DNA of 54,594 nucleotides from Candidatus Taylorbacteria bacterium RIFCSPHIGHO2_02_FULL_43_32b (GCA_001820955.1 MHRK01000019.1:1-54594); one strand, 5' to 3'. Positions 5,789 through 24,445 are shown, numbered from the stretch's first letter. Notes: generated by a model not told the origin, from the letters alone. Program-made: numbers and translations.

Positions 5789-6157
5789 CTAGTGGCTAGA
5801 CCCATGGAATAGAATCAGCATTCCTCCGCCTATAATCACAGGGCAAGGTGCGGGAGAAGGAGGACAGGGAACTAGAATAATGCAAGGCATCCAAGCGGTC
5901 GACATGCCGAGCAATTGTTGCCCCCAATGACTTGGGGGGCCATACGAATATGACAATGCCCCCATGTACATAAGTGACGAGAAAGTAGGCGGTCCAAGAA
6001 TTATCCAGGTGGCAGGCGGCACTTCGCAAGCGGGGAAATACCAGGTAATCGGACCTCCAAATGGAAATTGAGCCACAGCAAACCCGGGAAAAAGAGAAAA
6101 TGCCGCAATCATAAAAATCACCGTCAATAAACCAAATCTTTTCCAAAGTAAATCCAC
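5789..6157 (-). CDS. Small secreted Cys/Pro/Gly-rich hypothetical protein
   Basis: Signal peptide ending FAVAQ; FGGPI...PAC...LGPP...GSS pattern with spaced cysteines; divergent from the T4SS-like operon. Confidence 0.5.
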   Translation of the reverse strand: MDLLWKRFGLLTVIFMIAAFSLFPGFAVAQFPFGGPITWYFPACEVPPATWIILGPPTFSSLMYMGALSYSYGPPSHWGQQLLGMSTAWMPCIILVPCPPSPAPCPVIIGGGMLILFHGSSH

Positions 6158-6205
6158 AGCGTGATTATATCAAACGAAACGAATGTCTTATAATAAGATG
6201 TGCAT

Positions 6206-6976
6206 ATGAAATTACTTCAAAAGAAAAAAGCCGCGCTTTTTTTGCTTGTGATAATGGTCCTAATTTCTTCTATTTATATTTTTGCTTTAAGAGACAGAAG
6301 GCCAACAAGCGTCACCCTTACACCAACCTCACCGAATGATATTCCGGAACAGAAAAACATAGATTCGGACGGAGACGGTTTCGAAGATTGGGAAGAGGAA
6401 CTGAGAGGAACCGACCCGACAGTAAAGGACCCCCTGTCACAAATAAGTGGAAAAAGTCTTGTTAAAGATCGGGCGAACACGCCCCCAATCAATGCCCTAG
6501 CGCCAATCAATGACAGCGCCGAAGTCGTACCAAACACTAGGGGGGGTGATGCGCAAAACCCCTTACGAGTTATGGGAAATTCGGCAGCAACCATATTAAA
6601 AAATTTTGACTCTGTAGAGGAGGCCCGTCTTTTGAACCAATCTATTGAAACGTTGACACCGGAAATTTGGCAGGGATTAAAAAATATGGCCACGAAAAGA
6701 GCGGAAGTCGCCTCAAAACTAATCGACCTAAATACTAATTACAATGTCTCGGAACTCAAAAATTTCGCAGTAGCTCTGGACTCTCTCGCTGAAGCTATTA
6801 TTAAACTGATTGGAGACGGGAATAATTCAGATAAAATACCAGTCGAACGGTTTCAGGAATATGCACCGTACGCAATGAACTTCTCTGAAGCGTTTTTAAG
6901 TCTCTGTAAGAAATTTAAAAGCAGTAATGTAGTTTTTTCAGCGATAGAGCCAGGCGCAATATTTAATTTGCCATAA
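6206..6976 (+). CDS. Membrane-anchored protein with thrombospondin-type-3-like Ca-binding repeat
   Basis: N-terminal TM helix; DSDGDGFEDWEEELRGTDP acidic loop; ATG at 6206 (track start 6200 is GTG). Confidence 0.6.
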   Translation: MKLLQKKKAALFLLVIMVLISSIYIFALRDRRPTSVTLTPTSPNDIPEQKNIDSDGDGFEDWEEELRGTDPTVKDPLSQISGKSLVKDRANTPPINALAPINDSAEVVPNTRGGDAQNPLRVMGNSAATILKNFDSVEEARLLNQSIETLTPEIWQGLKNMATKRAEVASKLIDLNTNYNVSELKNFAVALDSLAEAIIKLIGDGNNSDKIPVERFQEYAPYAMNFSEAFLSLCKKFKSSNVVFSAIEPGAIFNLP

Positions 6977-7030
6977 TATTCCACAGCAATTGTCTTGGGT
7001 GTTTCAACCGATTGGGGATATAATAATCGT

Positions 7031-7981
7031 ATGTCGAAAAAAATTATCTTAGCGACCGTTGTTTGCCTGCTAATCGTCAGCACAGCTCTTTACCTTACCA
7101 GGATTAACAACCGCCAATCCTCTGATAACCAAGTGACAATAAAAGATGAGCGAAACCCCATACTGTTCTTGGATAATGATAAAGACGGCCTCAAAGATTG
7201 GGAGGAAGGGCTGTGGAAGACAAACCCAGAAATTGCTGACACTGATGACGATGGCACTTCAGATTTTGATGAAATTCGCGCCGGAAGAAATCCCCTCATA
7301 AAAGGACCGGACGACAAATTGGCTTCAATTACTATTTCTTCAAAAATAAATCCGCAAATCGAAGCCGATTTATCCGAAACCGATAAGTTTTCGAGAGAGT
7401 GGTTTGCCAAATACATAGCGGCCAAACAAGCAGGCGACCCGATAAACGTAGATCAGTCTGACTTTCTTATCCAGTCAGCCCTAAACGCCGAATCGGGAAC
7501 TGTGGACATCTTTAGCGAAGCAGATTTTCAGATTACTGGAGACGATGAACAATCCTTCAGAAAGTACGGGAACACCTTGGGTGCAATTTTTAATGACAAA
7601 AATGCCCAATACCCAGAGGGCGAAATGATGATTTTGGACAATTACCAAGCAACAGACGACCCATCCAAACTCGCTGACTTATCAAAATCCAAACTACGAT
7701 ATCAGGGGATAAAAGAGGAAATGGCCAAAATGGCTGTACCAAAGAGCCTTGTCGCCGATCACACAGTGATGATTAACATGATGTCCATAGTTGAGGTTGT
7801 TGTAGACAACATGCGATACATTGATTCAGATCCTTTGCGCGCTCTTGGTTGGGTATCAATATATCCTGACGCGGTAGATCTTTTTATAAATTCTCTTCGA
7901 AAGGTCAGTGCTCAATTTTCAAGCCGAGGAATTATTTTCAAGAAAGGAGAAAGTGGTTTGTTGATTTCAGGTGGTGTATAA
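7031..7981 (+). CDS. Paralog of the preceding protein (TM anchor plus two TSP3-like repeats)
   Basis: MSKKIILATVVCLLIV TM; DNDKDGLKDWEEGLWKTNP and DTDDDGTSDFDEIRAGRNP; ATG at 7031 inside track ORF 6995-7981. Confidence 0.6.
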   Translation: MSKKIILATVVCLLIVSTALYLTRINNRQSSDNQVTIKDERNPILFLDNDKDGLKDWEEGLWKTNPEIADTDDDGTSDFDEIRAGRNPLIKGPDDKLASITISSKINPQIEADLSETDKFSREWFAKYIAAKQAGDPINVDQSDFLIQSALNAESGTVDIFSEADFQITGDDEQSFRKYGNTLGAIFNDKNAQYPEGEMMILDNYQATDDPSKLADLSKSKLRYQGIKEEMAKMAVPKSLVADHTVMINMMSIVEVVVDNMRYIDSDPLRALGWVSIYPDAVDLFINSLRKVSAQFSSRGIIFKKGESGLLISGGV

Positions 7982-8039
7982 TTTGCCAAGCTTTTAATCT
8001 AAACTTCATATTATCTTATATGCCTAATTTGATTCATTA

Positions 8040-10535
8040 ATGGCCGCCTTCAAAAAAACTATTGTAATTGTTTTGATTATCGTTCTGGTTGTACCCATGA
8101 CTTTTTTCGTTAAACCAAAACCGGCCGACGCCTTTATAAGTTGTATTCTCGATGCTATTGGATTGCTGGCTGGGCTCGACTCAGCCGTCAATAAAGTTTT
8201 CTCTGTTCCGACAGGTGATTTCGTTACAGAAACCGCAACTTCCCAAAATGCTGCCGCAGATACCGGTTCCAACCTAAAAGAATGCCTGCTCGACCAAATC
8301 GCGTTCACCATGGCGAATGCTCTCATTAGAAATATAACCGCGAGCACAGTTGAATGGATAAATAGCGGTTTTGAGGGTTCGCCGTCATTTGTAACCGACC
8401 CCGAAGGTTTCTTTCTGGACGTTGGAGATCAAGTGGCCGGACAGTGGATAGAAGAATTGGGACCCCTCGGTGATCTCCTCTGCAGTCCTTTTGATTTACA
8501 AATTCGGTTGTCTCTCGGCATAGGCTGGACGCAAAGCCACAAGGAAGAAATTCGGTGTCGACTTTCTGATGTACAAAAAAATGTTTACAACGCTTTCCTC
8601 AAAGGAGGATGGGGAAGTGACGGCTGGTCAAATTGGATTTCGATCAGCAGGCCGTCAAACAACATGTACGGAGTCTATCTCGAAGCAGATAATCAATTAA
8701 CAAGAAACGTTTTACGACAACTTAACATAAATGAAAAGGAGCTCCAGTGGGGCAAGGGATTTCGTTCTTTTCGAAAATGCGTGGCGTATAGGCCAGATGG
8801 TAGCTGTCTTAAACACGACAAAAATCTAAGCACCCCGGGATCTGTCATCGAAACGCAACTTAACAATGTTCTTGACTCCCAAAAACGCCGCCTGGAGACT
8901 GCCGATGAAATCAACGAAATTATGGACGCTCTCATTAACCAGGCGTTCAACAAAGTGTTTTCCTCCATGGGAATCGGCGGTATGAGCGTTAAAAGTCCAA
9001 GGTATGGCGGCTCGTCTTACATTAAGAGTCTTGTAACTGATTACGAAAAGCAAGTGGCCGAATCCACCGCTAAACCGCCGACTTGGGTTGACTGCAATTA
9101 TACTTATCATATTGAGGACCTTGCGGATGGTAAAAAAGTTTCTGTTTGGATGCCAGGCTGGATGCCATCTGGTACAGACTGCGTAAAACCTACTACTGGT
9201 AGCACTGTTGGCCCGGGGTGTTTTGCTGAAATTACACCTGGACTTATTGCACAAGTGCCACCGGGGTCTCTTTTCCTTCCCGTACTAACTACTAGTGAGG
9301 CTGCCACCCCAGCAGCGGCCTTGGAAAATGCCATAAAAATCGGCTGTGCCAACGTCAACAACACAGTGGACAAAGTGGCGGGACAAAATGCGAACTCAGC
9401 CGTCGGAGACATAACTGGCCTTGGTTTTCTTTCACCAGAATTGACTGCGGGTGGAGCTGGAACATACCAAAAAAACTACGCGATGGATTCTTCAACTAAA
9501 ATCCTTACGAGCGCGCCACTTAGAAGGGTACAACCAGGAGATCAATTTGCCTATCTTGATGGCTCCTATTCGACTGATGGTTCAAAAAAAGCATGTGACG
9601 TATCGAGAGCAGGTGGATTTACCCTATCATCTGTTTTGACTAATTCGGGGGAAGGAGCTTACTTAAAAATGATTCTCGCAGAAGAAAAACCTATTGAAAA
9701 AATTAACTTATATATACCTTACCGATCTGTTGAAATCGGCGATAACCGAGGATGTGATAAATATTTTTACGACATGAGCTATATAATCTATGCCTATGAT
9801 GCCGCAGGAAATCAGTATTCTTCACCAGTATTTACAGGCAACTCTGATTACCAAAATCCAAAGACATGGACGTTTCCTAACACACCAAATATCAAAGAGA
9901 TCATTGTCCGCCCTTACAATCTTGACACTCGTACGCCGGATATCATAAATAATCTAAGCCTCGCCGAAGTCGAAATCCTCGGACAAGCAAAAGTTACAGC
10001 TCCTGGGACAACAGAAACCGTCACTCCGGCATCATCCAAAGTGTCTATGAATCCAGCCGCCCTTTCATTACCCAATCCGCTCAAACTGGGTTCGCTTTTC
10101 TCTCCTTCGGACAGCATGCATTACAATTTCAAACTCACACACTCAGAATCCAAACCTATCCCTGAGTTAAAATTAAAAATGACGCTGAAGTCTATTGAGG
10201 GCAGTCTTGTAACCCAACAAGATCTAAACAAATACTTCACGAACATCACTATTAAAAAAACTGTATCAAACGACTGTAGTGACCCATATGCATCTTCCAT
10301 TGTAAACAGTCCCCCGCCTCCGACCACACTAGAAATACCACTGGGGGCTTCAGCTGTTTCTCAATACTGCATACAAATTTCTGCTAAATTGCCGATTTAC
10401 AATACTACAGGAATAGACACTCTCGGGGCTTTCGAACTGCAAACGGAGATTACTGAATCTGCTTATGACACAACAAGCGAGCAATTTCTGAAAGTAGGCA
10501 CCCACAAAGCATCTTTCATTATCAATAAACCTTAG
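8040..10535 (+). CDS. Large (831 aa) membrane-anchored extracellular protein, discoidin/F5-8-type-C-like region
   Basis: N-terminal TM helix; long extracellular part. Segment ...IIVRPYNLD..NNLSLAEVEILGQA resembles the end of a galactose-binding-like domain (weak, motif memory only). Confidence 0.55.
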   Translation: MAAFKKTIVIVLIIVLVVPMTFFVKPKPADAFISCILDAIGLLAGLDSAVNKVFSVPTGDFVTETATSQNAAADTGSNLKECLLDQIAFTMANALIRNITASTVEWINSGFEGSPSFVTDPEGFFLDVGDQVAGQWIEELGPLGDLLCSPFDLQIRLSLGIGWTQSHKEEIRCRLSDVQKNVYNAFLKGGWGSDGWSNWISISRPSNNMYGVYLEADNQLTRNVLRQLNINEKELQWGKGFRSFRKCVAYRPDGSCLKHDKNLSTPGSVIETQLNNVLDSQKRRLETADEINEIMDALINQAFNKVFSSMGIGGMSVKSPRYGGSSYIKSLVTDYEKQVAESTAKPPTWVDCNYTYHIEDLADGKKVSVWMPGWMPSGTDCVKPTTGSTVGPGCFAEITPGLIAQVPPGSLFLPVLTTSEAATPAAALENAIKIGCANVNNTVDKVAGQNANSAVGDITGLGFLSPELTAGGAGTYQKNYAMDSSTKILTSAPLRRVQPGDQFAYLDGSYSTDGSKKACDVSRAGGFTLSSVLTNSGEGAYLKMILAEEKPIEKINLYIPYRSVEIGDNRGCDKYFYDMSYIIYAYDAAGNQYSSPVFTGNSDYQNPKTWTFPNTPNIKEIIVRPYNLDTRTPDIINNLSLAEVEILGQAKVTAPGTTETVTPASSKVSMNPAALSLPNPLKLGSLFSPSDSMHYNFKLTHSESKPIPELKLKMTLKSIEGSLVTQQDLNKYFTNITIKKTVSNDCSDPYASSIVNSPPPPTTLEIPLGASAVSQYCIQISAKLPIYNTTGIDTLGAFELQTEITESAYDTTSEQFLKVGTHKASFIINKP

Positions 10536-10716
10536 AGCCTGTTCATAGTCAAATCATAAACAATAAATGAGGTGTGTGACTGTAAGCCGACAATGATATG
10601 TCCCTCCTCGAGATATGTGATAGCCGCAGGCAAATTTAATTATTTTTGCAGGCAGCAGATTATGAACCGGCAACTAGTTGAGATGAGTTTTGAGAAAAGT
10701 TCAGTATAGGAAAAAA

Positions 10717-13053
10717 ATGATTTTGGGGAGATATAACAACAGGCGAAAGAAAACAGCTTCTTTGCTCGCAGTCGTTTTTTCTGCAGTGCTTTTTGCTGTA
10801 ATCCCACTTTCTGCTCATGCGATACCAAGCATGTCAGAAATGCTTGACGGCTTGTCAGCCCTCATCGATCTCTTCACTTCGGGCCGGTTAATCGCCAACA
10901 TCGCTTTCCTTTTCCTTACCATCATATCGGGCGCTGTTACATTAACAGGCGCCATTCTCGAAAAAAGTATCCAACTGTCAATACTCCACTTTGGCGATCT
11001 GGCCGGAGCTACCGGCATTGTCGGAATTGGATGGGAAATTGTTAGAGACCTGTCCAATTTGGTTTTCATCTTTCTCATTCTTTGGGTTGCGATCTCTACA
11101 ATCCTCGGCTTAAACCACGGCAGTGCTATGGGTACAATTATACGAATTGTTATAGCCGCGGTGCTCATAAACTTCAGCCTCTTTATAACCAAGGCAGTTA
11201 TAGACGTGGCCAACATCGTTGCTCTTCATTTCTATAACTTGATCATAGGTAGCAATGACGGCAGTTTGAGCGGTGTTTTTATGAGAGGGTTCCAGGTGCA
11301 AGGAATTTTTGACGGCAGATCAGTTGACCTCTCGACAGGGGCACCTTTTAAAATAATTGCTGTAAGCGTTTATGGCTCAATTATGCTTTTGGTCGCGGCG
11401 TGGATTTTTTTGGCCGCAGCGGTGATGATGATAACAAGAACAATCTACCTTGTTTTTTTGATGATTCTTTCGCCGTTTGCTTTCATAGCTTGGGTAATCC
11501 CCGGAATGGGGGGATACACGCACGAGTGGTGGAATAAACTTTTCAAGCAAGCTTTCTACGCGCCGATTTTTATGATTATGATTTACATAATCGGAAAAGC
11601 CTGGCAAGACGGCGGACTAAATACTGTTTTGGGAAGCGGATCCACCACCATGGCCACTGCATTTAACGGCATTTCAAGTGGAGCCTCATCCTCGCAGATA
11701 ATCGGGCAAATGGGCATCTTTGTAAATTTCATGACTTTCACGGGACTTTTGGTCGCCACACTCATCGTAGCCAATTCACTGGGCGCCAAAGGCGCGTCCA
11801 CAATGATTTCCTGGGGCAAGAAGTTGCAGGGAATCGGACAAGGTGTCGTCGGTAGCTACTCCGTCGGCAAAATCGGTGCCCTTATTCAGGATAAATATGG
11901 AGATAAATGGAGAGCCAGCAACAACATTGGTCAACGGCTACTTCTTCGCACAACCAATGCTATGCAAGAACAAAAGTGGGGGCAGGGAAGCAAGAGCTAC
12001 AAAGATTATAAAGAAAAAGGTTCTGTGCTTAGTGCCGGCGAGGAAGAGGTCAAGAAGAATATGGACAAGTTGGAAAATAACCCGACTGAATTTGCCAAAT
12101 ATTTTTCGCGACTTAGCGCGGAACAACGCAAATATGCTTACAAGAGTATGTCAGCCAGGAATCGTGTAGTCCTGCAACAAGCCGTGGCTGGACAACTTAG
12201 AGATCGCGCGGATAATCTGAGCCCAGCGATTGCAGGCCTCGACCAGTCATTGGCCGTATTATCAACAAAGCTTTCGCCGGAAGAAAGAGAAAAAACAGAG
12301 AAAGCGACAAGGGAAGCGGGCAGAGTAGACGAGCAGAGACAAATTCGAAATACACTTGGAGCATTTGTTCGACCTCTAACAGAGGCCATGAACGCCTTGT
12401 CTGTGGCTCAAGTTGCTGGAAATGCGGCAGAAGTGGCCAGACTTCAAGCGGAAATACCAAGAATTGAGGCGAACATCCGAACAAATCACGAGCAAGAAAT
12501 TAGAACTCGGCTTCAAAACCTTCAGAGTGGAGAGGTTAGCAATATGTCAATGCGAGATCTTCAGGCTTTGGCTCCTTATCTTTCTACGTCTCAATATCAA
12601 AAAACTAAAGATTCGCTGACAACAATAGAACAAAACCACCTTGAAATAGCCCGCTTTAACAATCTTGCAACTGCGGCCGGTCAAAATATTTCCTTAAACA
12701 ACAACAACCAAATTACCGTCACCTCAACAGGGGCAATCGACGAAACAGCTCTCCAAAATCAAATACGCCAGATGGACCCAAGAGACATTGCTGAAATGGA
12801 TGCGTCCCTCCTTCGTGTCCCTGCGATAATTAAGAACTTGTCACGCAAAAACATGGACGATTTGCTTAAGAGAACAGATTTGGATAGCGCAACAAGACAA
12901 AGTATCAGGAGAACGATTAATGACTTGATTCTGCAAGCAGCCGGAGGAACACCAGTGGCGCAAGCTGGAACACTGCAACCTAACCACGAACAGAATATTC
13001 AAGACATTGAGGATTGGCTACAAAGGGATCCTCGAGGTAGAAACTTTGTCTAA
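10717..13053 (+). CDS. Polytopic membrane protein, VirB6/TrbL-like, with long C-terminal coiled-coil tail
   Basis: Signal/TM then about 7 hydrophobic helices over the first ~400 aa, then about 380 aa charged Q/E/R-rich helical region; position next to PrgI-like and VirB4 genes; ATG at 10717. Confidence 0.5.
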   Translation: MILGRYNNRRKKTASLLAVVFSAVLFAVIPLSAHAIPSMSEMLDGLSALIDLFTSGRLIANIAFLFLTIISGAVTLTGAILEKSIQLSILHFGDLAGATGIVGIGWEIVRDLSNLVFIFLILWVAISTILGLNHGSAMGTIIRIVIAAVLINFSLFITKAVIDVANIVALHFYNLIIGSNDGSLSGVFMRGFQVQGIFDGRSVDLSTGAPFKIIAVSVYGSIMLLVAAWIFLAAAVMMITRTIYLVFLMILSPFAFIAWVIPGMGGYTHEWWNKLFKQAFYAPIFMIMIYIIGKAWQDGGLNTVLGSGSTTMATAFNGISSGASSSQIIGQMGIFVNFMTFTGLLVATLIVANSLGAKGASTMISWGKKLQGIGQGVVGSYSVGKIGALIQDKYGDKWRASNNIGQRLLLRTTNAMQEQKWGQGSKSYKDYKEKGSVLSAGEEEVKKNMDKLENNPTEFAKYFSRLSAEQRKYAYKSMSARNRVVLQQAVAGQLRDRADNLSPAIAGLDQSLAVLSTKLSPEEREKTEKATREAGRVDEQRQIRNTLGAFVRPLTEAMNALSVAQVAGNAAEVARLQAEIPRIEANIRTNHEQEIRTRLQNLQSGEVSNMSMRDLQALAPYLSTSQYQKTKDSLTTIEQNHLEIARFNNLATAAGQNISLNNNNQITVTSTGAIDETALQNQIRQMDPRDIAEMDASLLRVPAIIKNLSRKNMDDLLKRTDLDSATRQSIRRTINDLILQAAGGTPVAQAGTLQPNHEQNIQDIEDWLQRDPRGRNFV

Positions 13054-13070
13054 ATAATTATTTTAATGGT

Positions 13071-14084: not shown

Positions 14085-14088
14085 CGGA

Positions 14089-16227: not shown

Positions 16228-16257
16228 CAAATTCCTAACTGACCAATGAAACTGGGT

Positions 16258-16704
16258 GCAAATTGAAAATGTAAATATCAAAATGCAAAATGACAGTGCA
16301 AAGTTTAAAAATGAATTTAAAAAAAGAGTCTACAGTTGGGTTTTAAAACTTGTTAAGTTTATAGATACATTGCCAAAGGATTCTACGAGCTCGGTAATGG
16401 GAAAGCAGTTGATTCGCAGTGGCACAAGCATTATTGCCAATTATACTGAAGCCACCTCGGCTAGTTCAAAAAAGGACTTCATTAATTTTTTTACCTATTC
16501 ACTAAAATCAGCTAACGAGTCTAAAGTTTGGCTTACTTTGCTTCGTGACACCGGAAAAGGAAGTGTAGAGGAGCTAAATTGGCTTTTAAGTGAACTCATA
16601 GAAATAGCCAATGTTCTAGCTTCTAGTATAATGACTATGAAGGGGAAAAGATGATTTAACATTTTTAATTGTCATTTTACATTTTGATTTTTTAATTTTG
16701 CATT
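16258..16704 (+). mobile_element. IR-bounded mini-cassette C (four-helix-bundle cargo, AAAATG-type arms)
   Basis: Left core ATCAAAATGCAAAATGACA (16277-16295) versus right core TGTCATTTTACATTTTGAT (16670-16688), 18/19 complementary. Right arm is nearly identical to the SET cassette arm. Confidence 0.65.
16283..16654 (+). CDS. Four-helix-bundle protein (23S rRNA intervening-sequence protein family)
   Basis: FKKRVYSWVLKLVKFIDTLPK..GKQLIRSGTSIIANYTEA..SKKDFINFF.YSLKSANESKVWL; ATG 16283 lies inside the left arm. Confidence 0.8.
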   Translation: MQNDSAKFKNEFKKRVYSWVLKLVKFIDTLPKDSTSSVMGKQLIRSGTSIIANYTEATSASSKKDFINFFTYSLKSANESKVWLTLLRDTGKGSVEELNWLLSELIEIANVLASSIMTMKGKR

Positions 16705-16750
16705 ATTTTGACCGACACATACATATAATTCGTATATTGGTAACGCCTCT

Positions 16751-19700
16751 ATGAGTTTATTAGACAAAATTTTTCCAAAGAAAGACGCCGGCGACTCTCC
16801 GCAAATCGCCTCTGTTTTGCCTGCCGATATATATGAGGCAGGGGCACTTGAACTCCGCGATGTTATCGCCCCATCTGCTCTCAAAGTCTCGCCCAAATCC
16901 ATAAACCTGGGAAATAAAATCGTTAGAACATATTTCGTCATATCCTATCCCCGCTTTCTGACCGAAGGCTGGTTTGCCCCGATAATCAACCTGGACAAAG
17001 TTTTTGATATTTCAATATTCATCCACCCCATTGATACGGCAAGGGTTCTCAAACAATTTCAGAAAAAGGTGGCCGAAGTCCAAAGTCAGATAAACGAAAG
17101 GGAAAAGAAAGGTTTTGTCAGAGACCCCATTCTCGAAACAGCTTACAACGACCTTGAAAAATTGAGAGACGACCTTATGCAGGCTCAAGAAAAAATGTTT
17201 GATGTCGGTCTTTACATGTCCATCTACGGAGAGTCAGACGAAGAGTTGGACAAAATTGAGACTGAGGTGAGATCCATACTCGAATCCAAGCTTGTTTATG
17301 TAAAACCGGCGCTTTTCCAGGAGGAACAGGCTTTCAGAAGCATCGCCCCTCTCGGCACGGACGAAATTATGGTACACACAAAGCTAAACTCCTCGCCACT
17401 TTCCAGCCTTTTTCCGTTCATTTCCTTCGATATGACTTCCGACAAAGGTATTCTTTACGGCATCAATCGGCACAATGCGAGTTTGGTGCTGTTCGACCGC
17501 TTTTCTCTCGAGAATTACAACAGCGTGACGCTTGCTCAATCTGGATCTGGAAAAAGCATAAAAGGCAACGAACCCGTCCTCATAAAACAAAATGGAAAAA
17601 TATCACTCCGACCAATAGGTAGTGTCGTCGACAAACTAATAAGAAAGAGGGGGGCAGTACAAATAGATGAAGAAATGGACGGGGTGATCGACCCAGGACT
17701 GGAAGTCTACAGCTTTGACAAAAATATGAAAGGCTCGTGGAGTAAAGTCAGTGTTGCCGCCAGGAAAATAGCCCCCAAGCAATTCTATCGTTTCAAAACA
17801 AAAAGCGGACGTGCTGTTGTAACGACTGGCGACCACAACATGTTGGTTTTACGAAACGGTGAAATTGTAGCCACAAAAAGTGATAATGTTGGGTTGGGAG
17901 AAGCCGTGCCCTTACCGAGATCTGTAGAAACAGGCGATAATTTCGACACACAAATTAATTTACTTGAACTTCTGAAAAACCGCCCAAATATATATGTTGC
18001 CGGCGCGGCAAAAGAAATAAAATTGCTTCAAAAAGAATACGAAGGAAAGATTGTTAACTCGCGATTTGATAAATATCTCTACAAGTACCACGCGGGGCGA
18101 AGAATACCGATTGCCTATTTCCTCAAACTCTTACGAGCATCAAACCACACACCACAAGCAGTGGAGATTAGCAAATGGCGTGTTATTTCATCGAGCGGTA
18201 CTGGCTCTCTCCCCGCCATTTTCCCAATTTCCAAGGAATTCATGAGGATCATCGGCTATATTATTTCCGAAGGTACCATTCGAAAAGAAGCTGTTATTAT
18301 CAGCAACACCGAAAAAGAAGTTTTGGACGACATTTCAGACTGCCTTAAAAAAATGGGGTTAACCTTCTTCAGAAATACCAAAAGCATCCGCGTGGGTTCT
18401 GTCGTTTTCGTAAACCTAATTCACGCTCTCGGTCTTTACAAAAAATCAGCCGGAAAATGTATCCCTGGGATCGCATGGGGGACATCTACACAAAGCATGG
18501 CGGCCTTGCTTTCATCATACTTTGAAGGTGACGGTGGAGTAGACGGACCGTCAATCACAGCGGTGTCCAAATCAAAACGTTTGATTTCTGAGCTGTCTTA
18601 TTTTTTGTTTTTCTTCGGCATCGTAGGCCGCGTTCATAAGAGGGAAAAAAAATACGTCAAAACTGGTAAAAAAAGAACTTTTTGGCATATTTCCATAAGC
18701 GGGCAATCGTCACTTAACAGTTTTGCTGAAAAAATTGGCTTTGTTTCTAAAAGAAAAAATGCGCTTCTAAGTTCTCTTCTGAACAAAAATGAGAATACAA
18801 ACGTGGACACCATACCAACACTTGGACAACTAGTTGAAGAATTGACATTAATTTTCCCATACGGGATAAACGGAACATCTAATTTTCAAAAAATTAAATG
18901 GTCTAGATTTGACCCCACTCCTAAATATCTCAGAAAGGCAACTGATGAACTGGAAGAGAAAATCGAGGAGTTCGTGCAACTTGGGCAAAGCATAAAAATA
19001 TTATCGCAATTGCCCAAACTTCACAACATCATAGCTATTGCCAAGGAAAACAAAGAAGTCAACACCAAATTATGGAATCTCCTCGGTTCGAGTTGGGCAT
19101 GGATGCGAAACGAGACTGGAGCACCTCGTGCAGAGAACGCTCTTGCTCTTATAGAAGCTGTAGGTCTCACCTCTCCTAGTGTATCCGCAATTAAAACCGC
19201 CGTGCACGACAATGCAATAGCTCTGCATTTGCCAATGAAACACATGGACGCATCTTTACGGAGCGCTATAACAATACGGCCAGAAAGCAACACTTCCTAT
19301 GAAATGCTCCAAAAAGCGGCCTCTTTTATATCGACAGCATACCAGGAATGGGAAAATAATCTGCCGCGTGTGAAGGAAATAATCTCCATTTTACGCACGC
19401 TTATCGAAAGCGAACTATTTTTTGACCCGATTACCAAAATCAACACCATAGAAAACAAAAGCGAAAAATATGTTTATGACCTGACGGTAGACAATGAAGT
19501 ATTCCTTGCCGGATACGGCGGGATGTTTGTTCATAATTCATACGCCACCAAGCTCGAAATATTGCGCTCTCTTATGTTCGATACGGAAGTTATCGTTATC
19601 GACCCCGAAAGGGAATACGAGCAGTTGGCTGAAGCCGCCGGCGGAAAATATTTCAACATTTCGCTTAATTCCGAACACCACATTAATCCCTTCGACCTTC

Positions 19701-20557
19701 CCGCCCCAAGAGAAGACGAGCAACCAAGTGACGTTCTACGCTCGCACATCATCAATTTAGTAGGATTGTTTCGTATAATGCTGGGCGGTCTTACTCCGGA
19801 AGAAGACGCTATCGTTGATCGCGCCATCACGGAAACATACGCCCTAAAAGACATTACTCCCGACGAAAATTTTGCCAATTCTGAACCGCCTCTCCTTTCG
19901 GATTTCGAGACAGTTTTGGCCGGAATGGAAGGGGCATCTTCTCTTCATGAGAGGCTGACGAAATACAGCCGCGGCACATGGTCAGGCTTTATCAACCAGC
20001 CGTCAAACATTTCAATCGACAGCAAATTCGTAGTCTTTTCAATCAGAGACATGGAAGATGAACTGAAAGCCGTGGCAACATATCTCATTACAAACCACAT
20101 CTGGGCGGCAATCCGAAAAACCTTAAAAAGACGCCTTCTCATCATCGATGAGGCCTGGTGGATGATGAAATCTGAAGACACGGCCTCATTCTTGGCGCGC
20201 ATGGTAAAGCGCGGAAGAAAGTATTATTTGGGAGTCGCAACCATCACCCAAGACGTTGATGATTTCTTGAAATCTCCTTACGGCACTCCGATTATTACAA
20301 ACTCGTCTATGCAGATATTGCTCAAACAGTCGCCCACAACAATCGATCGTCTGCAACAAATTTTCCAGCTAACAGACGAAGAAAAGTATCTGCTTCTTGA
20401 ATCGGCCATAGGGGAGGGGATATTCTTCGTCGGCCTCAAACACGTAGCCATAAAAATCATCGGCTCCTATACCGAAGATCAGATTATCACGTCCGACCCC
20501 CACCAACTGCTAACAATCAAAAAAGCCAAGGAAGAGTTGCGCGCGACAGAAGGATGA
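16751..20557 (+). CDS. virB4: VirB4/TrbE-type T4SS ATPase interrupted by an in-frame intein
   Basis: Gram-positive-type VirB4 N-domain; Walker A AQSGSGK|S-YATK split by the intein; Walker B LLIIDEAWWM; ITQDVDDF. Confidence 0.85.
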   Translation: MSLLDKIFPKKDAGDSPQIASVLPADIYEAGALELRDVIAPSALKVSPKSINLGNKIVRTYFVISYPRFLTEGWFAPIINLDKVFDISIFIHPIDTARVLKQFQKKVAEVQSQINEREKKGFVRDPILETAYNDLEKLRDDLMQAQEKMFDVGLYMSIYGESDEELDKIETEVRSILESKLVYVKPALFQEEQAFRSIAPLGTDEIMVHTKLNSSPLSSLFPFISFDMTSDKGILYGINRHNASLVLFDRFSLENYNSVTLAQSGSGKSIKGNEPVLIKQNGKISLRPIGSVVDKLIRKRGAVQIDEEMDGVIDPGLEVYSFDKNMKGSWSKVSVAARKIAPKQFYRFKTKSGRAVVTTGDHNMLVLRNGEIVATKSDNVGLGEAVPLPRSVETGDNFDTQINLLELLKNRPNIYVAGAAKEIKLLQKEYEGKIVNSRFDKYLYKYHAGRRIPIAYFLKLLRASNHTPQAVEISKWRVISSSGTGSLPAIFPISKEFMRIIGYIISEGTIRKEAVIISNTEKEVLDDISDCLKKMGLTFFRNTKSIRVGSVVFVNLIHALGLYKKSAGKCIPGIAWGTSTQSMAALLSSYFEGDGGVDGPSITAVSKSKRLISELSYFLFFFGIVGRVHKREKKYVKTGKKRTFWHISISGQSSLNSFAEKIGFVSKRKNALLSSLLNKNENTNVDTIPTLGQLVEELTLIFPYGINGTSNFQKIKWSRFDPTPKYLRKATDELEEKIEEFVQLGQSIKILSQLPKLHNIIAIAKENKEVNTKLWNLLGSSWAWMRNETGAPRAENALALIEAVGLTSPSVSAIKTAVHDNAIALHLPMKHMDASLRSAITIRPESNTSYEMLQKAASFISTAYQEWENNLPRVKEIISILRTLIESELFFDPITKINTIENKSEKYVYDLTVDNEVFLAGYGGMFVHNSYATKLEILRSLMFDTEVIVIDPEREYEQLAEAAGGKYFNISLNSEHHINPFDLPAPREDEQPSDVLRSHIINLVGLFRIMLGGLTPEEDAIVDRAITETYALKDITPDENFANSEPPLLSDFETVLAGMEGASSLHERLTKYSRGTWSGFINQPSNISIDSKFVVFSIRDMEDELKAVATYLITNHIWAAIRKTLKRRLLIIDEAWWMMKSEDTASFLARMVKRGRKYYLGVATITQDVDDFLKSPYGTPIITNSSMQILLKQSPTTIDRLQQIFQLTDEEKYLLLESAIGEGIFFVGLKHVAIKIIGSYTEDQIITSDPHQLLTIKKAKEELRATEG
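17555..19537 (+). mobile_element. Intein (661 aa) with LAGLIDADG homing endonuclease in the VirB4 Walker A motif
   Basis: Ser1 after GSGK; block B TTGDHNMLV; LAGLIDADG-like motifs FMRIIGYIISEGT and LLSSYFEGDGGV; ends GGMFVHN with +1 Ser. Splicing restores GSGKSYATK. Confidence 0.85.
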
Positions 20558-20595
20558 TTTAAACAATCAGAATTACACACACTTCACTACTCAAA

Positions 20596-21033
20596 ATGGA
20601 AAAAAACGCACCCAAACAGAAGGTCTCTCACAATTTCAGACAAAATGAAGTGGGGGATAAATCGAATAGGGCAGAACCAAAACTACTGCCTGTGGTGTGG
20701 GCAATGCTTTTCACTGCCATGATCATTGTAGACCTTCTCCAAGTGGCGCTTGATGCCGTCGTCATAGGGTTTCTAGCGAATATACTTATAGACGTTGTTG
20801 TTGGCCCTTCACTTGCTTTATTCTTTTATCTGAGAGGGATGCTCGACAAGAAACTGACGATTAGCCTCATACTGGGCTTCGCACTTGATTGGTTGAGTCT
20901 CGGCATTTTACCGACCTGGACTGCGGATATTGCCTACGCATGGCTGGTCACTGACGGCTCAAAAACAATCGGCAAAGTGGCAGGGGCCGAAGAAACGGCA
21001 AAAAAGATATCTTCTAAACTGCTGAAAAAATAG
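20596..21033 (+). CDS. Small multi-pass membrane protein, hypothetical
   Basis: 145 aa with 3-4 hydrophobic helices, immediately after VirB4. Confidence 0.55.
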   Translation: MEKNAPKQKVSHNFRQNEVGDKSNRAEPKLLPVVWAMLFTAMIIVDLLQVALDAVVIGFLANILIDVVVGPSLALFFYLRGMLDKKLTISLILGFALDWLSLGILPTWTADIAYAWLVTDGSKTIGKVAGAEETAKKISSKLLKK

Positions 21034-21098
21034 TATTTGCCCTTAATATGTACTGAGGTACAAATAGTTGGAAATATTTGTTGTGGTATAATATTTAC

Positions 21099-22082
21099 AT
21101 GAAGTTGCGTCTTATTCTCACAATCGTCCTCACACTTTTTCTTTTCGCGTATTCAACTGTTGCTCAGGTCCCGGGGGAGGGTTCGCTTGAACTTGTTGTC
21201 ACTCCAGAAATTCCGAAACCAAACGAAGAAGTTGTTGCGGTAGTAAGAAGCAGTATCACTGATTTAGACCGGGCAGATATTTCCTGGATAATAAACGGGC
21301 AAACTAAAATCTCTGGCAAGGGTGTTAAAAGTTTTAGTTTTAAAAACGGACAATTAGGCGAAAAAACTTCTCTTCAGGTAATTATCGTCAGCTCCGACGG
21401 TTATTCTCTTTCTGAAACCGTAACATTCATACCGGCAAGCGTATCTTTAGTTTATGAAGCAAACTCTTACACCCCGCCCTTTTATAAGGGCAGGGCTTAT
21501 TTCCCCTATCAGGGAACCGGCCGAGTGATTGCCTTTCCATCATTTTCAGATGAAAACGGCCCGATCGACTCTTCACAGCTAATTTTCAAATGGAAGGAAG
21601 GAAATAGGGTTCATGAGAATGCCTCCGGTTTTGGCAAAAACACTTTCGCTTTTTCAAACACAGACAAATTGCCAAGACCTGGCGAGATAGGTGTAGAGAT
21701 TACATCGTCAGATAAACAAATAATCGCTACCGAAACTATAATTATCGAACCAACTGCACCCATGCTTATACTTTACGAACGCAAGCCCAATCTTGGCACC
21801 CTCTACAACAAAGCCCTTACAGATCAAGCACTTCTTAGTGGTGACGAAATGGCCGTGGTCGCCTCGCCGTTCTTTTTTGCGGTTAAAGATCCAAACCACA
21901 AAGACCTTCGATATGAATGGTCGTTAAATGGCCAGGACGTTCCTCAAACTCAAAACTCTTTGGTCGTGCGCAAGCCTCCAAATATTAGCGGCCAAGCTCT
22001 TCTGTCACTTCGAGTATGGAACACTCTTCGTTACTACCAATTCGGTACGACTGACCTTAATATTAGTTTTTCAGCTAACTAA
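21099..22082 (+). CDS. Secreted beta-rich protein (probably repeated Ig-like domains), hypothetical
   Basis: Signal peptide MKLRLILTIVLTLFLFAYSTVAQ; ATG 21099 inside track ORF 21078. Confidence 0.6.
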   Translation: MKLRLILTIVLTLFLFAYSTVAQVPGEGSLELVVTPEIPKPNEEVVAVVRSSITDLDRADISWIINGQTKISGKGVKSFSFKNGQLGEKTSLQVIIVSSDGYSLSETVTFIPASVSLVYEANSYTPPFYKGRAYFPYQGTGRVIAFPSFSDENGPIDSSQLIFKWKEGNRVHENASGFGKNTFAFSNTDKLPRPGEIGVEITSSDKQIIATETIIIEPTAPMLILYERKPNLGTLYNKALTDQALLSGDEMAVVASPFFFAVKDPNHKDLRYEWSLNGQDVPQTQNSLVVRKPPNISGQALLSLRVWNTLRYYQFGTTDLNISFSAN

Positions 22083-22083
22083 A

Positions 22084-23175
22084 ATGGCCATTATAAAAAA
22101 AATTTCAGTTGGTCTGGCGATCCTTATCTTTTTTGGTCTAAATTTTAGTTTATCCATGGCGCAGACAACCCCAAGAATTGATGTTTATCCCACCCTGGCT
22201 CCTTTGCCCAACTCAAACGGAGTGCTGGTCACAGAAGTAGTGGTTGGGGGGAACCAGGGGATAGGGACCTATTTAAACAATCTTTACAAGATGGCAGTTG
22301 CAGGGGCGAGCGTTTTGGCTGTTTTGATGATAGTTATAGGCGGTTTTACTTATCTTTCAACAGACGCCATCGGCAACAAAGAAGAAGGTAAGTCCTATAT
22401 TAAAAATGCCTTGGGGGGAATGCTCTTAATTTTAGCGTCGTGGATTATCCTAAACACAATTAACCCTCAACTTGTCCAGTTGAACATAATAAGTAAAAAA
22501 CTTGAATCGGTACGTATGGAATCTTTGTTTCTTTTTAGTGAAAACGGCCAAAAACAATTTGACGCAATGTATGAAGAGTTAAGAAAGTCTGTACTAAATC
22601 GCAAAGAAAAACTTCAAAACATGAAGGATCAATTATCAGAAATGCAATCTCAACTCGACACATATAAATACCTTCAACATATGGATAGCCTTGGAGCTTT
22701 ATCACCAATAGAAACCATAGCACTTCAACAGTTGGAGCCTAAAATCCAAGCTCTCGGTGGGGCATCCGCAATTGAAGCAAAAATCACTGACCTTACAAAA
22801 AATGTAAATCAAATTTCTCTAATTGACGGTACTTATGAGCGAATTGAGAATATCCGGGTCCAAAGCCTTACCCTAACAACCCCGACAACCATATTATCCG
22901 CCTCCGAAACTTTACGAAATATCTATACATCAACCGTTGCTAAAATTGACGCTTTGGATACACACATTTATACCGCAGATGCTAAAACAGATTACAAAAC
23001 TCAATTCGCTCAAAAAATCGACCAAACCATAGAGGAAATATGCAAAAATGGTGTAATTCCAGAAAAAATTGTAGACCTGGGTGAATTCACAGGTGGTGCG
23101 ACTTCTAACGACGACTACTCGAAGTGTTTGAGTTTTAGAATTCTACCCTCAGGCGGTGCTGGAGGGAACTGGTAA
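22084..23175 (+). CDS. T4SS-pilin-like (TrbC/VirB2-like) domain fused to a long coiled-coil tail
   Basis: Signal peptide, then two hydrophobic helices (LYKMAVAGASVLAVLMIVIGGFTYL ; IKNALGGMLLILASWIILNTINPQ) separated by a short charged loop, then about 230 aa helical region. ATG 22084 is in frame, 1 nt after the previous stop. Confidence 0.55.
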   Translation: MAIIKKISVGLAILIFFGLNFSLSMAQTTPRIDVYPTLAPLPNSNGVLVTEVVVGGNQGIGTYLNNLYKMAVAGASVLAVLMIVIGGFTYLSTDAIGNKEEGKSYIKNALGGMLLILASWIILNTINPQLVQLNIISKKLESVRMESLFLFSENGQKQFDAMYEELRKSVLNRKEKLQNMKDQLSEMQSQLDTYKYLQHMDSLGALSPIETIALQQLEPKIQALGGASAIEAKITDLTKNVNQISLIDGTYERIENIRVQSLTLTTPTTILSASETLRNIYTSTVAKIDALDTHIYTADAKTDYKTQFAQKIDQTIEEICKNGVIPEKIVDLGEFTGGATSNDDYSKCLSFRILPSGGAGGNW

Positions 23176-23179
23176 TAAT

Positions 23180-24445
23180 ATGGAAAATAAAAAAAGTAAA
23201 ATCATCATAACTGTCCTCGTAGTTGTTCTTTTTTTGATAGTGGGAGCTTTATTTTTCCTTTTTTTCATCAATCAGGAAGAGGCGGGTGATCCAGGTGACA
23301 TTTTCCCAGGCAGTGGTTCAGATTTGCCCGACATGAGTACTTCCACTACAAGTGGAGGAGGAAGATCCGGCACAACACAAGGTGGTGGCAATTTGATTTC
23401 TGGAATCCAAACACCTCACCCCCGCACGGGAACAGCTTTTAAACCAGTTCTGCGGCTCGTTACGAATAAGCCTGTGGGCGGGGCAGTAACTTTTGAAAGA
23501 AGTGGAAAAGTATTCATCCGATACATAGAAAGAGCTCAGGGCTTTACGTTCGAGACTAGCGCTGTAAATATCAATAACTTGAGACTTACTAATACAACCG
23601 TTCCGCAAATTTACTCCGCCTTATTTAACGCAAACGGGACTATCGCTATCCTTCAGTATCTGAAAGACGAATCTCTTATTCAAACTTTCGTTGGTAATCT
23701 TATTGAAAAAGGGGGAGGTCAGGGAGAATTAAGAGGTCAATTTTTAAAAACCGACATATCTACTTTGGCGCTTTCTCCACAAAAAGACAAAGTTTTTTAC
23801 TTGTTGGAAACAAATTCCGGTTCGTCAGGTGAATTAGTTTCCTTAAACAATACGCAAAGGTCTACTGAAATTTTCGAGTCTCCTTTGCGCCAGTGGCTCT
23901 CACAATGGCCAACAGAAAATAAAGTGCTTTTGTATTCGAAGCCATCTTACAATAGCGAGGGGGTTGCGCTGTTCGTAAATACAGTTAGCGCAGAGACTAC
24001 GACAATTCTCGGCGGGATTAAAGGTTTAACAGCCCTTGCCAGCCCGGAGGGAAATCACATTTTGTATTCCAATTCCTCGGACAAGACAATGTCAACCAGA
24101 ATTTATAGGCTAAATGATAACAGTAGTAAGACCATCAGCCTGACAACTTTACCGGAAAAATGCATTTGGAGCGACTCTTTACCAAACGTTTTTTACTGCG
24201 CCGTCCCATCCTCGATCCCTAAAGGAAATTATCCTGATCAATGGTACCAGGGAACTATTTCTTTCCGAGATGAAATGTGGAAGGTCAACGCGGAAACGGG
24301 CGACCTTGAATATCTGAGCCCGATAAGCGACCTGGCTGGCATGGACATTGATGCTGTAAACCTTTCAATAGACAAAAAAGACAAATCAATTACTTTCATG
24401 AACAAAAATGATCTTTCTCTTTGGACTCTCCAAATAGCCGAATAA
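23180..24445 (+). CDS. Membrane-anchored protein with probable beta-propeller (TolB/PD40-like) ectodomain
   Basis: N-terminal TM (IIITVLVVVLFLIVGALFFLFFI), Gly/Ser linker, repeated ...SP.G..ILYS... strands. ATG 23180. Confidence 0.5.
   Translation: MENKKSKIIITVLVVVLFLIVGALFFLFFINQEEAGDPGDIFPGSGSDLPDMSTSTTSGGGRSGTTQGGGNLISGIQTPHPRTGTAFKPVLRLVTNKPVGGAVTFERSGKVFIRYIERAQGFTFETSAVNINNLRLTNTTVPQIYSALFNANGTIAILQYLKDESLIQTFVGNLIEKGGGQGELRGQFLKTDISTLALSPQKDKVFYLLETNSGSSGELVSLNNTQRSTEIFESPLRQWLSQWPTENKVLLYSKPSYNSEGVALFVNTVSAETTTILGGIKGLTALASPEGNHILYSNSSDKTMSTRIYRLNDNSSKTISLTTLPEKCIWSDSLPNVFYCAVPSSIPKGNYPDQWYQGTISFRDEMWKVNAETGDLEYLSPISDLAGMDIDAVNLSIDKKDKSITFMNKNDLSLWTLQIAE

Follow-up and report, generated by a model that had tools for sequence, protein, structure and literature searches.

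A probable vertically inherited type IV secretion system of monoderm type beside the chromosomal origin of a Candidatus Taylorbacteria bacterium

The stretch of DNA considered here, 54,594 nucleotides (nt) from Candidatus Taylorbacteria bacterium RIFCSPHIGHO2_02_FULL_43_32b (GCA_001820955.1 MHRK01000019.1:1-54594; hereafter the window), carries at 6200-24445 on the plus strand a locus whose genes resemble those of a type IV secretion system (T4SS). This region of interest was analysed within the window, which sets the scope of the work. The locus consists of 12 host open reading frames (ORFs), all on the plus strand and separated by very short gaps, accompanied by three small inserted cassette genes and one intein. 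A sequence-only reading of the same DNA had described the order and strand of these genes as they are found here, but had counted 13 host genes instead of 12. Its three inserted cassette genes are recovered by Pfam as two 23S_rRNA_IVP genes and one PDDEXK_3 gene, and its divergent small secreted gene at 5789-6157 encodes 122 amino acids (aa) on the minus strand. The features are as follows, with positions counted from the first letter of the window (TM, transmembrane segment; TSP3, thrombospondin type 3).

5789-6157, minus strand: divergent small secreted Cys/Pro-rich protein, 122 aa, with an N-terminal hydrophobic signal and no Pfam family
6200-6976, plus strand: membrane-anchored 258-aa protein with one N-terminal TM and one bacterial TSP3-type Ca-binding repeat
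6995-7981, plus strand: membrane-anchored 328-aa protein with two DxDxDG Ca-binding repeats and a C-terminal domain without a family
8040-10535, plus strand: 831-aa surface protein with discoidin/CBM32-like and Ig-like beta domains
10690-13053, likely start ATG 10717, plus strand: extended VirB6-like polytopic membrane protein, 787 aa
13071-14084, plus strand: 337-aa protein without TM segments
14090-14533, plus strand: cassette gene, 23S_rRNA_IVP four-helix-bundle protein (PF05635, E 1e-34)
14557-14994, plus strand: PrgI/VirB3-like membrane protein, 145 aa (PF12666)
15033-15446, plus strand: cassette gene, PD-(D/E)XK nuclease family (PDDEXK_3, PF13366, E 1e-16)
15562-16227, plus strand: TrsD-like protein of 221 aa, a homologue of the N-terminal part of VirB4/TraC ATPases
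16256-16654, plus strand: cassette gene, second 23S_rRNA_IVP four-helix-bundle protein (PF05635, E 1.2e-19)
16751-20557, plus strand: VirB4 ATPase gene, precursor 1268 aa, spliced product 607 aa
17555-19537, plus strand: LAGLIDADG intein, 661 aa, in the VirB4 Walker A box
20596-21033, plus strand: small membrane protein with two TMs, 145 aa
21078-22082, alternative start 21099, plus strand: anchored protein with three Ig-like domains, 327-334 aa
22084-23175, plus strand: VirB2-like T4SS pilin-domain fusion, 363 aa (PF18895)
23156-24445, alternative start 23180, plus strand: single-pass anchored protein, 421-429 aa, with one TM

For comparison with relatives, one genome per GTDB species was scanned for VirB4 homologues, which gave 587 confirmed matches; the best 80 of these 587, from species-level Paceibacteria genomes, were taken with 10-kb flanks, and all counts out of 80 refer to these loci. 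The presence of each gene was scored by tblastn using the window protein as the query, and shortfalls in the per-gene counts are mostly explained by contig ends.

VirB4 was recognized at 16751-20557, as proposed by the sequence-only reading. The spliced product of 607 aa scores with P-loop_TraG (96 bits), AAA_10 (44.8 bits) and DUF87 (31.7 bits), and aligns over 356 residues with the C-terminal domain of Thermoanaerobacter VirB4 (PDB 4AG5, E 1.8e-38). Removal of the intein restores a GSGKS Walker A box, and the product carries the Walker A and B boxes that characterize the VirB4 of a T4SS. More than 8000 homologues, about 605 aa in length and about 77% identical across Paceibacteria, are present in databases; among the best 120, identity is 76-91% and length 592-620 aa, and the named ones belong to Parcubacteria, Paceibacterota, Taylorbacteria and similar groups. 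The intein (Intein_splicing, 59 bits; two LAGLIDADG_3 domains, 72 bits) interrupts the Walker A box with the junctions GSGK/SIKGNE...FVHN/SYATK; it begins with Ser1, has a TGDH block B and ends in HN before Ser+1. It occurs in none of the 80 related VirB4 genes, and together with the cassettes it is found in every copy of the same organism, recurring across several JGI and ENA metagenomes. A survey of Patescibacteria T4SSs by Quinonero-Coronel et al. 2025 (PMC12102498) makes no mention of inteins in VirB4 of this phylum. The uvrD gene (1699-4746) is also intein-bearing (Intein_splicing/Hint, about residues 262-627), which places two intein-interrupted P-loop ATPase genes, uvrD and virB4, within 20 kb of each other in the window.

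The product of 15562-16227, which the sequence-only reading had left unassigned, is TrsD-like according to NCBIfam. It matches the N-terminal 120 residues of the VirB4 models VirB4_plasma (E 1.8e-11), CD1110 (2.7e-5) and TrsD (0.037), while Pfam TraC_F_IV matches weakly and the precomputed family is PF26593 (TraC-like). The gene is present in 79/80 loci and corresponds to the "TrsD" of PMC12102498. The idea that this 221-aa gene and the 607-aa VirB4 (828 aa in total) are one gene split by a 23S_rRNA_IVP cassette was rejected, because 79 of the 80 relatives, without a cassette, also have two genes here, one of about 213 aa and then a VirB4 of about 605 aa; this arrangement matches the known TrsD/TrsE order. 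Two host genes upstream of virB4 lies the PrgI gene (14557-14994), which provides the VirB3/PrgI-type partner of a T4SS. It scores 41.7 bits with PF12666 against a cut-off of 27 bits, in agreement with the earlier assignment, and is found in 78 of the 80 loci.

The pilin-domain protein encoded at 22084-23175 scores 29.3 bits with T4SS_pilin (PF18895; cut-off 26.6 bits) over residues 57-126, with TM segments at 70-88 and 105-123. A signal peptide and a two-TM pilin domain above the profile cut-off, as in VirB2/TrbC pilins, are therefore present here, which upholds the TrbC/VirB2-like domain named before. The protein continues into a helical C-terminal region of about 235 aa that is predicted to be extracellular and is atypical for VirB2/TrbC; its gene is found in 62/80 loci. 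Weak NCBIfam matches to families from integrative and conjugative elements (ICEs) of Mycoplasma were also observed, namely Mbov_0395 (pilin-like) and MMCAP2_0566 for the pilin fusion and Mbov_0397 (VirB4) for the TrsD-like protein. Sequence resemblance hints that VirB2-like pilins may not be wholly absent from monoderm systems of the mating-pair formation class FATA (MPF-FATA).

In the protein encoded at 10690-13053, six TM segments are predicted, and its tail of about 400 aa is a hydrophilic coiled coil for which only coiled-coil-type PDB matches were obtained. This topology fits the VirB6/TrbL-like protein of the sequence-only reading, but the window protein itself has no match in Pfam, TrbL included, and the similarity appears weakly at the family level: of 29 family members only 4 match TrbL (best 6e-5), and with the family consensus the match has E 0.0033. 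The window protein matches NCBIfam CD3337/EF1877 with E 0.0015. By hhalign, the family reaches a probability of 41% (E 2.8e-4) with Bacteroides TraJ on an LMILSPIAF segment and 2.5% with TrbL. These similarities weakly suggest that the protein, whose gene is present in 59/80 loci, is VirB6-like. The 20596-21033 protein, with its two TMs, has no Pfam or NCBIfam family match; an ORF of at least 80 aa with 2-4 TMs occupies the same gap between the VirB4 gene and the gene for the 334-aa protein in 66/77 loci, and its sequence diverges fast.

Other parts of envelope-spanning systems were sought among the locus proteins. Pfam and NCBIfam scans returned no VirB9 or VirB10, and no VirB1-like peptidoglycan hydrolase between 6200 and 24445. 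No VirB8-like gene was recognized inside the locus, the families of 6995-7981, 13071-14084 and 23156-24445 giving no PDB profile match of this kind; the earlier statement that the locus holds neither a VirB8/TcpC-like protein nor a lytic transglycosylase is in line with these results. A gene encoding two to three LysM domains and Peptidase_M23 lies at 255-1271 on the minus strand, upstream of uvrD, and keeps this place in those 6-7 loci whose sequence reaches it. Possibly this is what PMC12102498 associates with virB4 in Paceibacteria as a "VirB1-like, M23/LysM" gene. Taken together, the locus combines a TrsD-like paralogue of the VirB4 N-domain with a Firmicute-like VirB4 and has no VirB7/9/10 core, which is the constitution of a monoderm MPF-FATA system. 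The "Gram-positive style" of the sequence-only reading agrees with these data: the best solved relative, 4AG5, is a Firmicute VirB4, PrgI is present, and VirB4 models of Mycoplasma and Clostridioides match the TrsD-like protein with their N-terminus.

The genomic context of the locus is that of a chromosomal core region. Upstream, the window contains the LysM-M23 gene, uvrD and ksgA (4809-5609); downstream follow a PaaX_M-like gene (24663-25286), jag (25509-25991, minus strand), yidC (25993-26766, minus strand), rnpA, dnaA (27439-28845) and dnaN (29074-30177), and then genes for PBP1, a class I (Trp/Tyr-type) aminoacyl-tRNA synthetase, ruvC, ruvB, pilB, polA and others. The order uvrD-ksgA-[6995-type, 831, VirB6, 337, PrgI, TrsD, VirB4, small TM, 334, pilin, 429]-(jag)-yidC-dnaA is almost invariant in the 80 loci, where tblastn located yidC in 63, dnaA in 55, ksgA in 48 and uvrD in 36. 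This recurrence of order and flanks in 80 species identifies a vertically inherited core chromosome locus beside oriC rather than an ICE; the conservation of gene order on which the sequence-only reading had made its proposal depend is thus seen in 80 species-representative Paceibacteria genomes, and in place of the ICE borders that would have spoken against it the window has housekeeping flanks. The oriC context itself had been missed. Cumulative GC skew is lowest at 26-28 kb and the skew changes sign at about 27-28 kb, next to dnaA. The T4SS operon of about 18 kb, like uvrD and ksgA, is encoded on the lagging strand, and its transcription runs head-on towards the origin; its orientation relative to dnaA is kept in the 80 loci and is left out of account in the published argument from gene dosage near oriC.

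Among the window ORFs scanned against Pfam (nearly all of at least 130 aa, including every one of at least 400 aa; 53228-54403, 391 aa, and 36316-37188, 290 aa, were left out), no relaxase and no integrase were found, and attachment or border repeats were not searched for. No VirD4/TcpA-type coupling protein (type IV coupling protein, T4CP) was found either, all ORFs of 400 aa or more within the 54.6 kb being accounted for. The absence of a relaxase and a VirD4-type protein inside the locus, claimed earlier, holds for the Pfam-scanned ORFs. The window has no tRNA gene, and its GC content reveals no compositional island. A mobile island or ICE was rejected on the synteny and the housekeeping flanks in 80 genomes.

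The inserted elements behave differently from the host genes. 23S_rRNA_IVP genes occur in only 9/80 loci, at differing intergenic positions, and most relatives have none at the 16256-16654 site; a PDDEXK_3 gene occupies the 15033-15446 site in 1/80 loci. Loci with small cassette genes in intergenic gaps are L006, L014, L034, L044, L045, L048, L051, L062 and L066. Because they occupy different gaps in different species, the 23S_rRNA_IVP and PDDEXK_3 genes behave like mobile gene cassettes. The three cassette genes and the intein are selfish insertions tolerated by the operon, not parts of the machine. The host genes that follow two of the cassettes (starts 15562 and 16751) are preceded by a short stretch of similar sequence, ATTCGTATATT.

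Among the surface partners, the 831-aa protein encoded at 8040-10535 deserves the closest description. It consists of a signal/anchor, a conserved Cys-containing N-domain (about residues 70-330) and discoidin/CBM32-like and Ig-like beta domains. An AlphaFold2 (AF2) model has a predicted local distance difference test (pLDDT) score of 66 and a predicted template-modelling (pTM) score of 0.39 overall, with blocks within about residues 540-830 at pLDDT 80-95. Foldseek aligned the model with F5/8 type C, CBM32 and F-lectin domains at TM-scores of 0.6-0.72 normalized to the target, and close full-length homologues match Pfam F5_F8_type_C (e.g., P0215, residues 526-668, E 2.8e-8). The discoidin-like segment of the sequence-only reading is supported by both the predicted structure and these homologues. 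The C-terminal modules of some relatives are PF00754/PF22633; others have Bact_surface_Ig-like (PF16403), PKD or InlB-type repeats instead. The family comprises 6249 clusters at 50% identity (E <= 1e-3), as found by a profile search of a representative library that, with its top 150 matches considered, bears on family size and not on remote relatives. Members range from 500 to 1200 aa; a typical one has about 540 aa, with a conserved Cys-containing N-terminal part of about 330 aa that includes an invariant WIN.GF.G.P. The gene is present in 55/80 loci, with the VirB6-like gene immediately downstream in nearly all 55.

The N-terminus of this family provides a lead to VirB5. Many members carry the mature N-terminal motif AQWVVTDPGN, which is common to TrbJ (VirB5) and Bacteroides TraI/DUF4141. 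DUF4141 is a protein of Bacteroides conjugative transposons whose gene lies between traG (VirB4) and traJ (VirB6), and several family members match this Pfam model at about residues 20-50 (E 1e-5 to 9e-8). The member P0280 matches NCBIfam TrbJ with E 8.4e-5, and among 88 typical members TrbJ is the sole recurrent NCBIfam match (three models, up to 5/88 members). A tblastn search of P0280 against 72,556 plasmids gave three weak matches, two of which, Dyella trbJ and a Bacteroides DUF4141 gene, are at the homologous N-terminal position; the Dyella plasmid TrbJ and Bacteroides TraI found in this way served as references. After the signal peptide, the sequence reads AEAQWVVTDPGNIVQSTITA in the 831-aa family, APAQWVVTDPGNMIENTISA in Dyella TrbJ and VQAQWVVSDPGNLVQGIVNS in Bacteroides TraI, an identical 10-mer being common to the family and Dyella TrbJ; in the window's own protein the motif is degenerate (PADA/FISCILDAIGLL). 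The strict motif was counted in 29/246 family members versus 0/209 control proteins. By hhalign, the family profile reaches a probability of 85% with TrbJ (E 5.8e-6) and 79% with TraI, with only about 30-45 columns aligned. The gene orders run in parallel, as trbJ lies upstream of trbL with one small ORF between and traI directly upstream of traJ. The N-domain in the AF2 model is helical and of low confidence, large parts of residues 27-320 (e.g., 40-88, 151-170 and 281-319) having pLDDT <50. No VirB5 structure was returned by Foldseek or by the PDB profile search of the protein and its family, and the family consensus gave nothing against Pfam and NCBIfam. A lysozyme-like, VirB1-type N-domain was considered as well; it has no invariant Glu and, in the low-confidence model, no Foldseek match, and found no support.

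In view of these similarities the 831-aa family may be, though somewhat less likely than not, a previously unrecognized tip protein of the VirB5/TrbJ class with exchangeable discoidin/CBM32, Ig-like or PKD modules. Its conserved N-terminal part would attach to the VirB6-like platform or the VirB2-like fibre, the C-terminus would be a swappable cassette, and the protein would act as the host-recognition tip of a pilus-bearing monoderm T4SS. If so, the variable C-terminal module could predict the host surface glycan bound by each uncultivated Paceibacterium, providing a sequence-based handle on host specificity in a class with few co-cultured members.

Of the remaining anchored proteins, the 334-aa protein was modelled with AF2 from an 88-sequence alignment at high confidence (pLDDT 95.3, pTM 0.83), which revealed an N-terminal helix followed by three tandem Ig-like domains, and the Ig-like repeat protein of the sequence-only reading is recognized in it. 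The top Foldseek matches are Hoc, SGBP-B, titin fibronectin type III domains (FnIII) and adhesin Ig arrays. The gene is found in 77/80 loci, and its homologues are all annotated as hypothetical and have no Pfam family. By position, this protein was the best candidate for a TcpC/VirB8-like NTF2 scaffold, which was rejected on the three Ig-like domains of the high-confidence model. The two proteins with TSP3-type repeats had been described as paralogs. The signal in 6200-6976 is below threshold (TSP3_bac, 22.2 bits, cut-off 25 bits) and an N-terminal anchor and the repeat are the sole common parts of the two proteins. The 6200-6976 gene is found in only 5/80 loci and is a lineage-restricted accessory gene. 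The 6995-7981 protein has weak NCBIfam matches to the TSP3 regions of MtsD/CglD; its family profile matches Bap (E 1.7e-6) and calmodulin Ca loops, and against PDB profiles only the Ca-binding repeat was matched, with nothing for the C-terminal domain. Genes of this type occur in 41/80 loci, always first in the cluster.

The 337-aa family has a conserved N-terminal domain of about 100 aa (consensus LP..Q..I......IG.KH.LHIDQ.G.L.DE), a Pro-rich linker and an invariant C-terminal DPYRE, and the window protein has no Pfam, NCBIfam or PDB match; the gene lies between the VirB6-like gene and PrgI in 40/80 loci. The 429-aa family, found in 67/80 loci, has three conserved Cys and many conserved Trp, Gly and Pro residues. 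The window protein has no Pfam match, the family consensus gave nothing against Pfam and NCBIfam, and the PDB profile search gave, as the only hint of the beta-propeller-like protein of the sequence-only reading, a weak match to a prolyl-endopeptidase propeller (E 0.43). Profile-versus-PDB sequence searches of the 334-, 429-, 831-, VirB6-like and 337-aa families returned nothing informative. The divergent 122-aa ORF occupies the same site between ksgA and the locus in only 3/80 loci, and it is doubtful that its product belongs to the secretion system.

Several other features of the window were observed. A perfect hairpin with a 19-bp stem at 25311-25352, just past the PaaX_M-like gene and between the locus and jag, is the only strong terminator-like structure in 5.5-25.4 kb; a promoter/terminator scan revealed no enrichment versus shuffled sequence. 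A separate type IV pilus system nearby is represented by a PilB/T2SSE ATPase with an MshEN domain (41140-42825, minus strand; T2SSE E 3.9e-120). Two genes are unusual for a reduced genome, namely 37764-39629, encoding a 621-aa protein that weakly resembles squalene-hopene-cyclase-C and DUF4430, and 49349-49771, encoding a 140-aa SET-domain protein.

Considering these results, the locus is most probably a vertically inherited chromosomal T4SS of class Paceibacteria, monoderm and MPF-FATA-related, that has lost its link to conjugation. In such a system, a VirB4 hexamer would dock on a platform of PrgI/VirB3, TrsD and the VirB6-like protein in the single membrane, and would drive the extraction of pilin-domain subunits, or the passage of a substrate, via a wall-spanning structure. 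This structure may be formed by the pilin-domain protein with the Ig-like and other anchored proteins, in place of VirB7-10. The 831-aa protein, as a VirB5/TrbJ-class component, would be placed distally, where its discoidin/CBM32 and Ig modules could bind host-cell surface glycans. The apparatus may serve contact-dependent exchange with the host cell, by protein export or by uptake of host macromolecules, and would mirror the Saccharibacteria system. The sequence-only reading had preferred a contact apparatus to a conjugative element; synteny supports the non-conjugative half, and a role in host contact or attachment would hold by analogy. Some observations weigh against this interpretation. 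The host-contact role and essentiality are extrapolated from Saccharimonadia, another class with a differing locus (NTF2-like, lysozyme and peptidase genes and a pilin array), and the VirB6-like protein and the TSP3 repeats of the window score below curated thresholds. As no VirB8-like or VirB1-like gene is recognized in the locus, an envelope-spanning architecture is a conjecture, and with so long a C-terminal extension the pilin may not fit into a canonical VirB2 filament. Many Patescibacteria genomes carry T4CP-like genes at other sites (5,713 in 2,918 genomes; PMC12102498), and a head-on operon on the lagging strand fits poorly with the published gene-dosage argument of "high expression near oriC".

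Other functions of the locus can be weighed on the same evidence. Patescibacteria are not known to carry out nucleotide synthesis. A ComB-like DNA-uptake machine that imports host or environmental DNA as a nucleotide source would require VirB4, VirB2/3/6-like parts and surface proteins, but neither relaxase nor T4CP, and the locus yielded neither of these two. PMC12102498 explicitly proposes that DNA or other macromolecules are imported, and a UvrD/PcrA helicase gene lies just upstream in at least 36/80 loci. However, uvrD is a housekeeping gene whose adjacency may only reflect near-origin synteny, no DNA-binding or nuclease component was recognized in the locus, and a separate PilB (41140-42825) is available for classical competence-type uptake. 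In Saccharibacteria, the comEC pathway mediates transformation and is dispensable, whereas the T4SS is essential (PMC10633639, PMC12857230), so that its essentiality is not via ComEC-dependent uptake. A DNA-uptake machine is considered unlikely. A conjugative element, or a decayed remnant of one, with its relaxase and T4CP beyond the window or lost in recent times, could be argued from VirB4, PrgI and TrsD, which are closest to monoderm conjugative systems, and from the selfish elements (intein and small cassettes) embedded in the locus. This is extremely improbable in view of the same order and housekeeping flanks (uvrD-ksgA ... jag-yidC-dnaA) in 80 species-level genomes and of a VirB4 that is about 77% identical across families, which indicates vertical inheritance under strong purifying selection. 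In addition, no integrase, relaxase or T4CP was seen among the scanned ORFs, no tRNA gene is present in the window and no GC island, with repeat borders not searched for, and relaxases occur in only 103 Patescibacteria genomes and rarely near virB4 (PMC12102498).

An organelle for adhesion only, in which the ATPase assembles a VirB2-like fibre that presents adhesins and translocates no substrate, would account for the pilin domain, the lectin and Ig-like surface proteins, the VirB5-class N-terminal motif of the 831-aa family and the lack of a coupling protein among the scanned window ORFs. Against it, type IV pili already supply adhesion in Patescibacteria (PMC12206443), and PilB is encoded in the window; the pilin is a 363-aa fusion and not a small polymerizing subunit; and secretion is known from T4SSs without a T4CP, namely Ptl and Brucella VirB (cited in PMC12102498 and PMC12857230). 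Adhesion alone is a distinctly unlikely function. The vertically inherited, non-conjugative T4SS remains the reading preferred here, and it is already known, having been published for the phylum, including class Paceibacteria (PMC12102498, PMC10633639, PMC12857230). The system is probably central to the way in which ultra-small Candidate Phyla Radiation (CPR) bacteria live on other cells. The kind of system is not new, and the window offers a clean Paceibacteria example of it with full synteny; what it adds are the assigned folds and the TrbJ/TraI-type motif seen in the 831-aa family. Annotation beyond the published surveys includes the lectin-bearing TrbJ/TraI-type protein, a component with three Ig-like domains where a VirB8-like scaffold might be expected, a positionally conserved small membrane protein, and an operon that tolerates a VirB4 P-loop intein together with selfish cassettes.

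Compared with the MPF-FATA conjugative systems, including pGO1/pIP501 and the Mycoplasma ICE, the locus shares a separate TrsD/TraD-like gene before VirB4, a PrgI/TrsC-type VirB3, a VirB4 C-terminal domain like that of Thermoanaerobacter (4AG5) and the weak Mbov_0395 and MMCAP2_0566 matches. It differs in having no recognized relaxase, T4CP, VirB8-like protein (TraM/PrgL/TcpC) or VirB1-like hydrolase in the cluster, and in being chromosomal and vertically inherited rather than mobile. The 831-aa family resembles VirB5/TrbJ of P-type systems and TraI/DUF4141 of Bacteroides MPF-B systems in the motif (A)QWVV(T/S)DPGN right after the signal peptide and in the position of its gene upstream of a VirB6-type gene. 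In contrast, the similarity is limited to about 45 N-terminal residues, TrbJ and TraI have 210-260 aa as against 500-1200 aa, a Cys-rich conserved domain is unique to the 831-aa family, and the motif of the window copy is degenerate.

A parallel in gene order is found in Saccharibacteria. Wang et al. 2023 (PMC10633639) reported a cluster, SEML1_0006-0019 of Southlakia epibionticum, that is essential for epibiotic growth and has no recognizable coupling or relaxase proteins; its order is VirB6, NTF2-like, a large protein, PrgI, TrsD-like, VirB4, hydrolases and Ig-like proteins, plus a pilin array. A 2025 FEMS review (PMC12857230) describes such systems as the first T4SS found to be essential for their own bacterium, with a pilus as a possible product. 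Common to this system and the window are the core order VirB6 ... PrgI - TrsD-like - VirB4 followed by extracellular proteins including Ig-like folds, the adjoining dnaA and dnaN, pilin genes within the cluster and the lack of T4CP and relaxase. Of the two, S. epibionticum alone has an NTF2-like (VirB8-like) protein, an array of six small pilins, and genes for lysozyme/CHAP and peptidase that follow virB4 directly, whereas the window has a single pilin fusion, no recognized NTF2-like protein and no hydrolase in the cluster, the LysM-M23 gene lying about 5 kb upstream. The 831-aa and 429-aa families of the window are not annotated in S. epibionticum.

The Paceibacteria arrangement of PMC12102498 also corresponds to the window. 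That study defined a distinct Patescibacteria VirB4 clade related to MPF-FATA, in which TrsD is the partner found most often and PrgI/VirB3, VirB6 and VirB2-like pilins occur as well. Homologues of VirB8 or VirB1 are few, only 103 genomes have relaxases, and T4CP-like genes are seldom close to virB4; in Paceibacteria and Microgenomatia the genes lie near dnaA, dnaN, ksgA and rnpA. The window matches it in VirB4, TrsD, PrgI/VirB3, VirB6-like protein and VirB2-like pilin, in the absence of a relaxase and of a T4CP nearby, in its position beside the same four genes and in its MPF-FATA affinity. Neither adhesins nor VirB5 were reported for the clade, and accessory genes were left unassigned. The window copy differs from the published system in that a LAGLIDADG intein interrupts the VirB4 P-loop and three small cassette genes stand between the T4SS genes, as well as in the features assigned here: the discoidin/CBM32 domain of the 831-aa protein, the three Ig-like domains of the 334-aa protein and the TrbJ/TraI-type motif of the 831-aa family. 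The apparent combination of a VirB5/TrbJ-type N-terminus with a sugar-binding domain in the 831-aa protein is possibly the main new point with respect to the literature.

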